A DNA stretch of 64,000 nucleotides from an uncultured Planctomycetota bacterium (GTDB lineage: Bacteria; Planctomycetota; UBA11346): the NCBI GenBank assembly GCA_963818245.1, contig CAWFSD010000012.1:106994-170993 (forward strand), given 5' to 3'. The notes under the pieces were generated by a model, which worked only from the letters and a program-made list of their open reading frames with translations, ran no database searches and was not told where the DNA came from. A program made the position numbers and the translations under genes. Of this stretch, positions 1-64,000 are shown piece after piece. Position 1 is the first letter of the stretch. Each line of letters begins with the position of its first letter.

Positions 1-2119
1 AAGCAGGTGCGCGGCCGCCCGCAGCCGATCCTCGAGATGTACGAGGTCGACTCGCGCCTGTGCGGCAACGTCAAGTTCAAGTACCACGACGACCTCCCCG
101 AGATCGACCCGCTCGAGCGCATCGGCCTCATCGTCGCCGAGGACAAGACCGGGCAGATCATCAAGTGCGAGCGCGACCGCGACCTGGAACTGCAGCGCTG
201 CAACGAGTTCATCAAGCGCGGCGCGCTGGTGCAGCGCCGCGGCGCCTTCGGCTTCGTCGCCGACGGCGACGCCGCCGACCGCTTCCTCGCCCAGGTCATC
301 CCCAACCTGCAGGGCTGGGAGATCCGCGGCCAGGACCGCCTGCACCGCGGCCGCCCGCCCGCCGACATCACCACCTCGGCCAAGGTCGTGGCCCACGACG
401 ACTACCTCGAGCTCGAGATCGAGGCCGAGGTCGACGGCCGCCACGTGCCGATCAAGGAGCTGCTCAAGAACGCCGCGCGCGGCCAGAACGTCATGGTCTT
501 CAAGGACGGCCTGCGCGCGCGCATCAACGACGAGTGGCTGACCCGCTACCGCACGCTCGCCGAGTTCGGCGGCCTCAAGGAGCACAACGGCAAGGTGCGC
601 GTGCCGCGCCACGCCGCCGCCATGGCCGTCAGCCTCGCCGAGTCCGGCGGCACCATGGCCCTGGACGAGGCCACCCTCGACCTCGCCAGCCTGGCCAAGG
701 GCGGCGCCTCGATCCCGCACGTCGAGCTGCCCAAGGGCCTCAACGCCACGCTGCGCGAGTACCAGCACGCCGGCTTCGACTGGATGGTGTTCCTGTCCAA
801 CCGCGGCCTGGGCGGCGTGCTCGCCGACGACATGGGCCTGGGCAAGACCGTGCAGTCGCTGGCCTTCATCCTGCACCGCCACAAGGAGGACCCCGGCGTC
901 CACCTGGTGGTCGCGCCGCGCTCGGTGGTCGACAACTGGGTCGACGAGTGCAAGAAGTTCTGCCCGGAAGTGCCGGTGCACACGCACCTCGGCCTCGACC
1001 GCGTCAAGTCGGTGGAGCGGCTGCCCAAGAAGGGCCTGCTGCTGACCAGCTACAACATCCTCCAGCGCGACATCAAGCTGCTCGGCTCGATCGAGTACAG
1101 CACGGTGATCCTCGACGAGGCGCACGTCATCCGCAATCCCGAGGCGAAGACCACGCGCGCCGCGCTCAAGCTCACCGCCAAGCGCCGCATGTGCCTCTCG
1201 GGCACGCCGGTGCAGAACTGCGCGGAAGACCTGTGGCCGATCTTCCACTACCTCATGCCGGGGTTCCTCGGGCCGCCGCAAGACGCTGAAGGAGACCCTG
1301 CAGGACGACCCCGAGGCCATCCACCGCCTGCGCGACCGCGTCGCGCCCTTCGTGCTGCGCCGCATCAAGAAGGAGGTCGCCACCGAGCTGCCGCCCAAGA
1401 CCGAGATCCTGCTGCACGCCGAGATGAGCGACGAGCAGCGCGGCTTCTACAACGAGCTGCTCGAGAAGGAGCGCGTCGGGGTCATGGACCTGCTCGGCAG
1501 CAAGGGCCTGGAGCGCTCGCGCGTCTCGATCCTCGCCGCCATCACGCGCCTGCGCCAGGCGGCGTGCGCGCCATCGCTGGTCGGCGCGCCCGAGGTCGAC
1601 AGCTGCAAGGTCGAGCTGTTCATGGACCTGGTCGACGAGCTCATCGCCGAGGGCCACCGCGCCCTGGTGTTCTCGTCGTTCACCAAGTTCCTCGCGGTCA
1701 TCCAGGCCAAGCTCGAGGAGCGCAAGTACACCTTCCAGTACCTCGACGGGCGCACGCGCGACCGCGCGGCCAAGGTCAAGGCGTTCCAGAAGGGCGACGA
1801 CCCGCTGTTCCTGATCTCGCTGAAGGCCGGCGGCGTCGGCCTGAACCTGACCGCGGCCGACTACGTGATCATCCTCGACCCGTGGTGGAACCCCGCCGCC
1901 GAGGACCAGGCCGCCGACCGCGCCTACCGCATCGGCCAGGACAAGCCGGTGATGGTCTACCGCATCGTCACCGTCGACTCGATCGAGGAGCGCGTGCTGC
2001 GCCTGCAGGAGGAGAAGCGCCGCCTGGTCGGCGATCTCGCCCTGGAGGGCCTGGCGCGCGCGCTCGAGGCCGGCGACGTCGAGAAGCTGTTCGAGGTGGC
2101 GGTCAACGTCGGGTCGTGA
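1..2119 (+). pseudogene. SNF2/SWI2-family helicase; the 5' end lies outside the window and the frame is broken once near 1277
   Basis: ORF 7..2139 carries SNF2_N motifs ('LADDMGLGKT', 'ILDEAHVIRN', 'LSGTPVQN') up to about 1277, then becomes Arg/Pro-rich off-frame text. The +1 frame (ORF 1352..2119) resumes with 'FVLRRIKKEV' and helicase-C motifs ('LVFSSFTKFL', 'LKAGGVGLNLTAADYVIILDPWWNPAAEDQAADRAYRIGQ'). Confidence 0.85.
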
Positions 2120-2235
2120 GGGGCGCCGTTGCGCGCTGACTCCAGCCGCGGTGGCGCGTCCTCCCGGCCCTGCTAGGCTCACGGTGTCTCCGCCGGCAGC
2201 GCCGGCCGCCCGCCCCGTTCCGCCTGGAGCCCGCC

Positions 2236-2739
2236 ATGCGCCTCCCCGCCCTCGCCCTGCTGACCGTGGTCGTGGCCGCCGCCGACGGCGCCGTCGTGGC
2301 CGAACCGGCCATCGGCAGCGTGGCTCCCGAGTTCGGCGGCACGCGCTTCTACAACCTGCCCGCCGGGGTCACCAAGGTCACCCTCGCCGACGAGCGCGGG
2401 CGGGTCGTGCTCATCGACTTCTGGGCGACCTGGTGCGCGCCGTGCGTCGCCACCATCCCGCACGCCATCGACCTCTACGCCAAGTTCCACGCCCAGGGCC
2501 TGGAGGTGATCGGCCACACCGACGCGAGCAGCGAGGACCTCGACGCCTTCATCAAGGCCAAGGGCATCCCGTACATCATCAGCGTCGGCCCCGACATCGG
2601 CGACGCCTTCGGCGCGGCCCTGATCCCGCACGCCGTGCTCATCGACCCGGACGGCAAGGTCGCCTGGCAGGGCCCGCCGGGGGAGCTCACCGAGCAGACC
2701 GTCGCGGACCTGATCAAGACGGTGAAGAAGCCACATTGA
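2236..2739 (+). CDS. TlpA/ResA-like thiol-disulfide oxidoreductase (thioredoxin fold)
   Basis: ORF 2236..2739 has a signal-like N-terminus (MRLPALALLTVVVAAA) and the CxxC motif 'FWATWCAPC'. Its length (167 aa) is typical of periplasmic TlpA-type proteins. Confidence 0.85.
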   Translation: MRLPALALLTVVVAAADGAVVAEPAIGSVAPEFGGTRFYNLPAGVTKVTLADERGRVVLIDFWATWCAPCVATIPHAIDLYAKFHAQGLEVIGHTDASSEDLDAFIKAKGIPYIISVGPDIGDAFGAALIPHAVLIDPDGKVAWQGPPGELTEQTVADLIKTVKKPH

Positions 2740-3056
2740 TGCGCAGCGGCCGTCGGCGGGCGGAGCGGGCCGACGAGGACCGCGACCGCCCGCCGCGCGC
2801 GGCGGGCGCGCGCTCCTCGCGGTGCACGGCGATCGCGAAGGCCAACCCGGCCACTGCGCCGACCAGGGCACCGGTGGCGAAGCGCGCCTTGAGGTCTTCG
2901 TAGCGGTCGGTGCGGACGGCTCGTCGGGCGGCGCGCGTCGGTGGGCGCGGAAGCGAAATAGGACTCGAGGCCGAAGATCAGCGCGAGGACCACCGCGCCG
3001 AGCACCGGGAAGGTCGCGTACATGCCGAGGATGCGCAGCCAGGGGACGTCCCACAT
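2714..3056 (-). pseudogene. Possible small two-TM membrane protein, needing one frame change near 2925-2960
   Basis: ATG at 3056 gives 'MWDVPWLRILGMYATFPVLGAVVLALIFGL' (a TM segment). A neighbouring frame then gives 'RYEDLKARFATGALVGAVAGLAFAIAVH' (a Gly-zipper TM segment) and stops at 2714. I recognise no homology, so the call rests on hydrophobicity and GC3 only. Confidence 0.25.
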
Positions 3057-3088
3057 GGGGGAGCCTACCACGGCCGGTGGGCCGGCGC

Positions 3089-62384: not shown

Positions 62385-62390
62385 CGGGCG

Positions 62391-63291
62391 TCACGGCGCG
62401 TCGTGGACGAAGCACCAGTGCAGGAAGCGCTCCAGCCAGCCGCGCCTCCGGTCGGGTGCGAGCACGGCGCGGAGCAGGCCTGCGCGATCCGCGCCGATGA
62501 GGCCGAGCAGGGCGCCGTCCTGGTCCTTCCAAGCGGCGCGGCCGAGGTCGCGCGCGGCGCGCAACCGCTGCGGGGCGGCGCGTCCAGTGGTAGCCCAGCA
62601 GCTGCGCGAGGCGGTAGGCGTGCTCGGAGGAGGCGGGGTCGCGGAAGGCCGCGCCCGACCAGAACGGGCCCGCCGGATGCTCGCGCCAGTACGTGAGGGT
62701 CGCGCGCCAGTTGTAGGGATCGGCGAGCGGCGGCGCGCGGTTGCCCATGCGCGTCTCGAGCTCGGTGGCGATGCCCTCCTGCAGCCAGGTCGGCACGCCG
62801 CTGCCGCTCAGCACGGCGTGCACCAGCTCGTGGCCGAAGGCCGCGTCGAGCGCCTCCCGGCCGGTCACCGGGACCGCCAGGTGCCCGACCGGGAAGGAGC
62901 GCCAGCAGCCGCCGCTGATGATCGACGCACCGCTGCCGCCGAACAGGCCCTCGTAGGCGAGCTGGTCGTCGGTGGACGCGAACAGGATGGCCGGCCAGCC
63001 GCCGGGTGGCGGCTCCGGTTCGAGTCCCGGGATCACCTCGGGCAGGCGCAGCAGCGCGTGCCGGGCGTGCGCAGCGAGGCGCTCGTGGTCGGCGCCGAAC
63101 GGCGTCAGCCAGTGGAAGGCGCGGTCCGGCACGAGAGCGTACGGCGCGCCGAGCGCGCCGGCGACGTCAGCCAGGAAGCGCGCGGGGGTGATCGTCTCCG
63201 CGAGTGATCCAGCCGCGGTCCAGGTAGGCGCCGCCGGCTCGGACGCCGTGGGCGGGTCGGCGGGTGGTTGGCCGTCAGATGCGTCCGTCAT
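62391..63291 (-). pseudogene. Peptidase-MA-like (HExxH...EG) protein, with one frame break near 62575
   Basis: ATG at 63291 lies inside ORF 62308..63561. The zincin-like motif is 'HELVHAVLSGSGVPTWLQEGIATELE'. After 'LLGYHW' the sensible text continues in another frame ('APQRLRAARDLGRAAWKDQDGALLGLIG...FLHWCFVHDAP'), with the stop at 62391-62393. Confidence 0.6.
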
Positions 63292-63314
63292 GGGAAAGCT
63301 CCGGTGCGGCCTCG

Positions 63315-63920
63315 TCACGATCGCGCGATCAGTCGGCGGCGCCAGTGGTCGAACGCGGGGCTGGTCGAATCCCACGCCGCCCACAGCGCGATGCCGTTGC
63401 GGCGCAGGCAGTCCAGCCAGGCGGTGCGCTCCTTGGCGCGCACGGTCTTCAGCAGGCACTGGATCTTCTCGTCGTCGCTCAGCGCGCGCGGCTGGCTGCG
63501 CAGCGGCATGCCGGCCTCGTGCGGAGTGCGCGCGTCCTTGCGCGCGTTGCAGGCGCGGCACGCGGCCACGACGTTGCCGAGGGTGTCGGCGCCGCCGCGG
63601 CTGCGCGGCACGACGTGGTCGCGGGTGCCGGTGGCCATGGACAGGCGCGCGCCGCAGTACTGGCAGGCGAAACCGTCGCGCACGAACACCGCCTTGCGCG
63701 TCGGGGCATCGAACAGGCGGCGGCGGCGCTGGGTGCGCACCTGGTGGCGCATCACCACCACGGCCGGCAGCTGGAAGCTGGCGTGGGCGCTGCGCACGGT
63801 GTCCGGGTAGTGCTCGATGGGCACGGCCTTGCCGGCCAGGACCAGGGTCAGCGCGTCGATCCAGCGCTCGGCGACGGCGAGGTACTCAAAGCTGGCGTTC
63901 AGCACCAGGCAGCGGGTCAT
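63315..63920 (-). CDS. HNH endonuclease family protein
   Basis: ATG at 63920 lies inside ORF 63315..63962. The zinc-ribbon plus HNH core is 'CQYCG...TRDHVVPRSRGGADTLGNVVAACRACNARK'. Confidence 0.8.
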   Translation of the reverse strand: MTRCLVLNASFEYLAVAERWIDALTLVLAGKAVPIEHYPDTVRSAHASFQLPAVVVMRHQVRTQRRRRLFDAPTRKAVFVRDGFACQYCGARLSMATGTRDHVVPRSRGGADTLGNVVAACRACNARKDARTPHEAGMPLRSQPRALSDDEKIQCLLKTVRAKERTAWLDCLRRNGIALWAAWDSTSPAFDHWRRRLIARS

Positions 63921-64000
63921 GGGATTCCTTCGCAGATGGGACGGAACGGTGGTGCGGTCCACCGGCTTCGCAGGAGGTTCCGCGCCGCCACGAGGCGGCG

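Follow-up and report, generated by a model that had tools for sequence, protein, structure and literature searches.

The 64,000-nt stretch analysed here (the window; G000:C12:106994-170993, GCA_963818245.1, CAWFSD010000012.1) comes from an uncultured Planctomycetota bacterium, and it raises the question whether the many frame breaks that interrupt its genes, including hisS, hemL and parAB, belong to the organism or to the sequence that was deposited for it. Its source, G000, is a metagenome-assembled genome of 4.58 Mb in 72 contigs with a G + C content of 72%. Because the indels are private to G000, occur genome-wide and in essential genes, are biased towards insertions and come without signs of relaxed selection, they are very probably consensus errors of the deposited assembly and not features of the organism, whose true genes, judged by the sequences compared here, are almost certainly intact. 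The same reading, random-indel consensus error, had been proposed in the initial annotation, and it is supported by the properties just named as well as by ongoing purifying selection on the broken genes and the low marker completeness of G000.

A G + C content of 72% puts long open reading frames (ORFs) into each of the six frames, and the window has 260 that reach 80 aa or more, so that frames might be mis-tracked by an unaided reader; therefore, independent methods were used. With respect to nucleotide alignment, the same-genus genomes G003 and G010 are collinear with the window from position 1 to about 52 kb at identities of 85-96% and 85-97%, respectively, and against them 26 isolated indels of a length not divisible by three were found within coding DNA that is otherwise 85-97% identical. 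At all 19 sites covered by both genomes the same indel is found and is private to G000, the other seven being covered by G003 alone. Over 30,097 three-way aligned coding columns, G000 carries 20 private frame-breaking indels (13 insertions and 7 deletions), and G003 and G010 carry three each, all of them in poorly aligned patches. At the protein level, G003 proteins map onto G010 in one frame and onto G000 in two to three, as is the case for the SNF2 helicase, the FGGY kinase, ppdK, parB, hemL, the M18 peptidase, mutL, the PA14 protein and the multi-haem cytochrome.

A further independent reference, L038, is a 17-kb contig from a JGI metagenome that was reached by a homologue search with the intact neighbouring aspartate kinase and that is 100% identical over 5.5 kb to L039 (Logan assembly of SRR27584636). 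It represents a different strain and is the nearest independent reference, covering positions 26341-43614 of the window at 92-99% identity, and its genes were called intact for hemL (432 aa), the large pilus-associated protein (1,096 aa), the M18 aminopeptidase (434 aa) and mutL (640 aa). Metagenome scans with the C-terminus of the giant secreted protein and with the PA14 gene, in a collection from which records very close to the genome of the window may be missing, gave either nothing or only relatives of at most 51% identity. The broken genes are intact in three independent assemblies of close relatives, and the earlier advice to treat pseudogene calls in this stretch as provisional is upheld.

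Independently of any reference, a Viterbi frame tracker places 36 shifts in the window (6.7 per 10 kb of coding sequence); its codon log-odds were derived from the other contigs of G000, and sequence ends and overlapping-gene junctions were removed because both inflate control counts. The same analysis of syntenic DNA gives densities that rise from 0.25 per 10 kb in G010 through 0.66 in G003 to 1.0 in G004, the relatives showing 7-25 times fewer shifts. Tracker and alignment positions differ by a few bases, about 17 at the most, although the tracker under-calls in the lower-GC parAB-hom island, where it missed four parA/parB events found by alignment. Altogether, about 56 frame-breaking indels have reference support and three more were seen by the tracker only (near 53082 in a regulator, near 53617 in the giant secreted protein gene and near 62583 in a peptidase-like gene); they hit some 20 of the roughly 45 genes, and a few additional ones are ambiguous. 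The count of at least 45 breaks in about 19 genes with which the initial annotation started was therefore slightly conservative. The G003 gene L010_4505_9022, a fused mis-call of a simple gene caller, was left out of the counts.

The breaks extend over the entire genome. By tracker, G000 contains about 1,665 shifts, i.e. 4.4 per 10 kb of coding sequence or about one per 2.3 kb, as compared to 0.25-1.0 per 10 kb in its relatives, and they affect 30% of all gene models with a length of 100 aa or more, a share that reaches 48% from 500 aa upwards. The sole rpoB gene of G000 is split over two frames, and G002, G003, G013, G014 and G015 each have it in one open frame; rpoC of G000 is intact. No second copies of the hisS, hemL, parA/parB, ppdK, mutL, M18 and FGGY genes were found in G000. 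As a separate observation on the genus, rpoB and rpoC of G004 each lie in three adjacent pieces (G004:C197:4115-12003), and at 1.0 tracker shifts per 10 kb this genome is probably a second, milder indel-error assembly.

The spectrum of the events is strongly skewed. The precisely placed ones comprise 43 insertions and 8 deletions, nearly all of a single base (about 84% insertions overall), and a binomial test, entered as 43/52 against p = 0.48, gives P ~2e-7. Genome-wide, the tracker called 1,316 one-base and 349 two-base skips (an insertion:deletion ratio of 3.8:1, the local one being about 5:1). For natural bacterial indels, insertion:deletion ratios are 0.76-0.94, with deletions in excess in every group surveyed (PMC6054270, PMC2817411). 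It had also been claimed that the breaks do not lie at homopolymers, and accordingly some 17 of 24 precisely placed events have no adjacent identical base, the remainder changing run lengths from one to two, two to three or three to two only, and the long runs G8 (29576-29583) and G7/C7 (41101-41107) are free of indels, being identical to the intact references.

In addition, the broken genes bear the marks of selection. Third codon positions hold 71% of the substitutions between G000 and L038 (20 of 25 in hemL), in contrast to the 33% expected for random error; this excess implies purifying selection up to the present and a low substitution error, so that the damage is specific to indels. In the same aligned genes, a single doubtful in-frame stop stands against 20 frameshifts. 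The shifts are evenly spread along genes (deciles 2-9, Kolmogorov-Smirnov (KS) p = 0.65), and therefore no sign is seen of selection purging mid-gene disruptions. Two further candidates for sequence error were tried and rejected. One was an excess of substitutions in G000, which was ruled out as substitution error since third-position C/G changes dominate it and the substitutions against L038 are, at 71%, mostly in third position as well; G000 forms the longest branch of the three-taxon comparison, G003 and G010 being nearer relatives of one another. The other was a clustering of substitutions near indels, considered as local error bursts, which amounts to 2.3-fold in G000 but also to about twofold in G003 and G010; as it is similar in these, the indels merely sit in more variable DNA.

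How such errors might have arisen can be outlined as follows. Most likely, the reads behind G000 were long single-molecule ones with a high error rate, and accurate reads were hardly used for polishing, if at all; this would have left mainly surplus single bases in ordinary sequence outside homopolymers, at about one per 2-2.5 kb, a profile resembling the random insertions of raw reads that survive a shallow or unpolished consensus. The errors would be denser where co-occurring strains differ, as in variable genes for exported proteins, and in the hot zones described below reads from divergent alleles were probably collapsed into one consensus, or effective depth was low. With respect to the cell itself, frameshifted rpoB, hisS, hemL and parAB together with a third of all genes broken are incompatible with an organism abundant enough to yield contigs of at least 100 kb.

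However, several points weigh against the explanation by consensus error. The indel errors themselves are what we infer from the comparison of assemblies, and so are the platform used, the depth and the collapse of strains. The nearest reference belongs to a different strain (92-99% identity), so that its intact genes need not speak for the very same population, and an insertion-dominated, non-homopolymer profile does not fit the plain label of systematic long-read error. Moreover, shift density varies by contig from 0.57 to 7.6 per 10 kb of coding sequence at equal G + C content (chi-square p ~1e-16). The more than 10-fold contrast between contigs C72, C9, C16 and C51 on the one hand, with C72, C9 and C51 as contigs of low error, and C2, C49 and C50 on the other is an observation in its own right, which possibly stems from differing depth, polishing or origin.

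Gene by gene, with +1, +2, -1 and -2 denoting bases gained or lost in G000, the breaks are distributed as follows; Pfam scans were run on the frame-corrected conceptual proteins and bear out most of the gene names, the domain models being continuous across the corrected sites. At the left end, a gene for an SNF2-family helicase (1..2119, plus strand), which runs off the window, has a +1 at 1273 relative to G003 and G010; the G003 protein matches in two frames with 99% identity on each side, and SNF2-rel_dom is unbroken after correction. Downstream of it, a 167-aa gene (2236-2731) is unusually divergent in G000, with private substitutions amounting to 17.5% and a protein that shares 69% identity with G003, where G010 has 93%, and it is followed by a segment of about 350 bp (2740-3090) that occurs in G000 only, the flanking genes being directly joined in G003, G010 and G004; its minus strand could encode a small membrane protein with two predicted helices.

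Further on, a 239-aa gene of unnamed function (5172..5834, minus strand) has a G000-private 1-bp deletion at 5682-5685 compared to G003 and G010, which is probably compensated near 5786, and a small gene (15253..15861, plus strand) has lost one base at 15298, again privately relative to both. In hisS, coding for histidyl-tRNA synthetase (6657..7955, minus strand; tRNA-synt_His), both references reveal a compensated pair, +1 at 6813 and +2 at 6897, between which about 28 garbled residues sit between perfectly conserved flanks. Here, as had been predicted, the break is hidden from annotation, because the 430-aa ORF stays open and automated annotation does not flag it. The gene for an FGGY-family sugar kinase (10084..11583, minus strand; FGGY_N and FGGY_C) carries +1 at 10116, 10599 and 10941 according to the alignment, to protein mapping in three frames and to the tracker. 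The CCA-adding/poly(A) polymerase-like gene (18328..19536, plus strand; PolyA_pol head domain) has two compensated pairs, formed by -1 at 18998, +1 at 19044, +1 at 19062 and -1 at 19361, in the alignment to G003, the only one possible as the stretch lies outside the coverage of G010; tracker shifts lie at 19012 and 19373. By alignment and tracker, the gene for pyruvate, phosphate dikinase, for which the earlier name ppdK is kept (19714..22686, plus strand), has +1 at 20376, 21730 and 22644.

Against both references, parB (24732..25792, minus strand) has a +1 at 25439, where alignment locates the break at the quoted site ctgcatgcagcac, and parA (25800..26400, minus strand) has +1 at 25823, 25939 and 26131, its G003 counterpart being intact with 267 aa and the Walker A motif KGGVGKT. 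The parB-parA-hom stretch (24000-28000) differs from its surroundings in G + C content (62-67% versus 72-77%), and hom is only 92% identical to L038, with 91% of the differences in third position; the neighbouring genes are 98% identical. The hemL gene for glutamate-1-semialdehyde aminomutase (29510..30807, plus strand) has a -1 at 29520, just past the start, and a +1 at 30693-30696, where the quoted site cacgggagtatac was located by alignment; both indels appear in the three-way alignment and against the intact gene of L038, and the G8 run is correct. The M18 aminopeptidase gene (37756..39145, minus strand) has a +1 at 38099 compared to G003, G010 and L038, with Peptidase_M18 continuous after correction. 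For mutL (39190..41143, minus strand; DNA_mis_repair and MutL_C), a +1 was found at 39633, the G7/C7 run at its start is correct, and gaps at 39785-39947 in a divergent linker, which sum to a multiple of three, were left out of the counts. Two spacers in this part of the window, 27763-27962 and 39089-39186, are rich in small indels between G000 and L038; these were not counted as error and may be real repeat-number variation between strains.

In the right part of the window, the gene for an exported PA14/DUF6797 protein (46675..49483, plus strand) has a +1 at 47215 by alignment and tracker, and a gene for a multi-CxxCH cytochrome c (49650..51968, plus strand) maps in three frames with a -2 near 49911, in the divergent N-terminal part, and +1 at 50718 and 51077. 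A Ser/Thr protein kinase gene (59912..62384, plus strand; Pkinase) has a +1 at 60704, its intact 824-aa orthologue in G003 mapping in two frames. The gene for a LacI-type (Peripla_BP) regulator (52383..53370, plus strand) and a peptidase-like gene with an HExxH motif (62391..63204, minus strand), the latter without a match in the Pfam scan, show one tracker-only shift each.

Hot zones occur in two large genes for variable exported proteins. The first, a pilus-associated gene (32690..36041, plus strand) downstream of two pilin-like genes, contains a hot zone at 33445-35231 with 27 indels relative to L038, 23 of them frame-breaking; insertions make up 25 of the 27 and 21 of the 23. In the upstream 2.4 kb (30,997-33,444, i.e. 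the two pilin-like genes and the start of the gene itself) no indels relative to L038 were found. The second, a giant secreted protein gene (53380..57136, plus strand), has shifts near 53617, 53924, 54243, 54319, 54935 and 55300, and its stretch 55307-57133 is unbroken. Intact homologues of the latter, with 1,234 aa in G051 and no fewer than 1,064 aa in G049, map to it in five successive frames, and their frame switches coincide with the last five of the tracker calls.

Compared gene by gene, the counts of the initial annotation are recovered by alignment to relatives for the SNF2 helicase, parB, the M18 peptidase, mutL, the PA14 gene and the Ser/Thr kinase (one each), hisS (two), and ppdK, parA and the CxxCH gene (three each). 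In four genes it had recognised the breaks correctly but counted too few of them: three instead of two were found in the FGGY kinase gene, four instead of three in the cca-like gene, two instead of one in hemL, and 23 instead of about 12 in the pilus-like gene. For the giant gene the breaks as such are real, whereas of the about ten claimed at least six were found, five being backed by the intact homologues; of the two shifts claimed for the regulator one is seen, by tracker only, as is the one claimed for the MA-peptidase. The tentative small gene at 2714-3056, with one claimed break, lies in the segment that G003, G010 and G004 lack.

The hot zones give rise to the alternative that survives best, namely that the breaks are mostly technical but that both zones (33445-35231 and 53.6-55.3 kb) are real, strain-specific pseudogenes of dispensable exported proteins. 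Both genes are indeed non-essential, the pilus zone is the most divergent part of its gene, and events are about 20-fold denser there than in the window on average (23 versus 1.2 expected, P ~1e-21). However, the events resemble those elsewhere, being almost all insertions, mostly of single bases and in a non-repeat context, whereas natural decay is deletion-biased (PMC6054270, PMC2817411). Also, 59% of the substitutions of the pilus gene relative to L038 are at codon position 3, and this retained bias indicates that the underlying allele is under selection. Moreover, the gene is a single intact ORF of 1,096 aa in L038/L039 (92.6% nucleotide identity), and an intact 1,184-aa homologue in G004 maps to the region in alternating frames. 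Real decay of the hot zones is therefore unlikely.

For the preferred explanation by consensus error, the pilus zone is informative in another respect. Divergence from L038 climbs from 2-4% to 8-14% at 33.4-35.3 kb, and since the densest hot zone coincides with this jump, the mixed-strain part of the initial annotation gains support: it has been reported that merging divergent alleles into one consensus creates spurious indels and frameshifts (PMC8445201), and errors and divergence may coincide in the pilus gene because divergent alleles were collapsed in this manner. Genome-wide, too, tracker events are clustered, 8.5% of the inter-event distances being below 100 nt as compared to 4% expected. 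As to the locus itself, the pilin-like/pilus-associated cassette (30800-36200 in the window, 4713-9716 in L038, 10370-15848 in L024) is hypervariable within the genus: the alleles of G003 and G010 are 26-36% protein-identical to the types of G000/L038 and of G004, with cassette length and flanks being the same. Between G000 and L038 the large pilus-associated gene is a mosaic with ends of 97-98% and a middle of 86-92% identity.

A second alternative assumes that all frameshifts are real, a mutator lineage having turned genes into pseudogenes all over its genome very recently, or that the DNA stems from a non-viable or relic population. The indels are present in the deposited sequence, after all, and mutL itself carries a +1 at 39633. 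However, this would require about 1,700 frameshifts, including those in the sole rpoB, in hisS, in hemL and in parAB. Loss of mismatch repair leads to indels at homopolymers and microsatellites and to transitions, whereas about 70% of the events are away from homopolymers and no change is seen in the G7/G8 runs. There is neither an excess of nonsense codons nor a relaxed codon-position pattern, and the insertion bias runs against the natural one (PMC6054270, PMC2817411). Genuine pseudogenisation is thus highly improbable.

It is scarcely credible that the frame breaks are an illusion of the 72% G + C, with frames mis-tracked by an unaided reader: besides the wealth of ORFs in the window, the undercounted pilus gene and the possibly overcounted giant gene of the initial annotation would fit such an error, but the idea is refuted by base-level alignments to three independent assemblies, which place the indels at named sites, and by the far lower number of shifts in relatives under the same analysis. 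Finally, programmed recoding, i.e. mass +1 ribosomal frameshifting or transcript editing, has next to no likelihood: although skipping one base restores the frame in 1,316 of the 1,665 events, the contexts of the listed shift sites are heterogeneous, and neither a motif in common nor a slippery sequence or stop codon was seen among them; and since the extra bases are missing altogether from strains with 92-99% identity, some 1,300 sites of recoding would need to have originated within about 2% divergence.

Returning to consensus error, comparisons with published cases show both likeness and difference. As in long-read genome and metagenome assemblies (PMC12007338, Kastor; PMC8103633; PMC8574707, ARAMIS), single-base indels occur genome-wide in G000 and split or garble conserved genes, essential ones included; and as there, high contiguity goes together with depressed marker completeness and with breaks that become visible against intact orthologues. 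However, for well-covered PacBio-only assemblies it has been reported that homopolymers hold more than 70% of the indels that remain and that G or C is lost in genomes of high GC (PMC8574707); this is unlike G000 with its roughly fivefold excess of insertions, mostly outside homopolymers, and with its longest G/C runs correct. The signature of homopolymer-type long-read error, as known from Oxford Nanopore Technologies (ONT) or high-coverage PacBio data, is thus not found here. In an allele-specific assembly of Trypanosoma brucei, nearby allelic variants misalign reads and thereby generate spurious indels and apparent frameshifts (PMC8445201), which resembles the situation in G000. That case, in contrast, concerns a diploid eukaryote and was shown with reads, whereas in G000 we infer the strain mixture; and a collapse of this type would account for the hot zones but not for the genome-wide background.

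There is also a likeness to the bacterial pseudogenes of reductive evolution, in which many genes are cut by small frame-breaking indels (PMC6054270, PMC2817411). However, natural pseudogenes are characterised by a deletion bias, nonsense mutations and relaxed substitutions, and essential genes are spared. In G000 none of this is seen: insertions prevail at about 5:1 in the window and 3.8:1 genome-wide, nonsense codons are not in excess, the position-3 bias is kept, and rpoB and hisS are among the broken genes.

The value of these findings lies in a warning about data quality and not in biology. In the collection searched, G000 is the single genome for its species, yet about a third of the genes in it are in pieces, cut short, fused or locally garbled. 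Before polishing, therefore, any call of a "pseudogene", a "lost domain", a "fusion" or a "missing catalytic residue" in G000 is unreliable, and its completeness estimate of 63%, in a genome of 72 contigs whose relatives reach 83-90% with 100-1,010 contigs, is largely an artefact. In turn, assemblies of this class can usefully be recognised by their error profile, in which insertions outside homopolymers dominate and hot zones lie in strain-variable genes.

If the frameshifts were real, the organism would belong to a mutL-defective lineage or its DNA to a relic pool that had just accumulated some 1,700 mostly +1 insertions, which would imply an insertion-biased mutational process not known so far or a tolerant decoding system; and if the hot zones alone were real, they would point to a local hypermutation of surface genes of a novel kind. 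The breaks as observed, however, are almost certainly an assembly artefact of a familiar type, its preference for insertions and for non-homopolymer sequence being somewhat unusual, and its practical importance is high for all who use G000.

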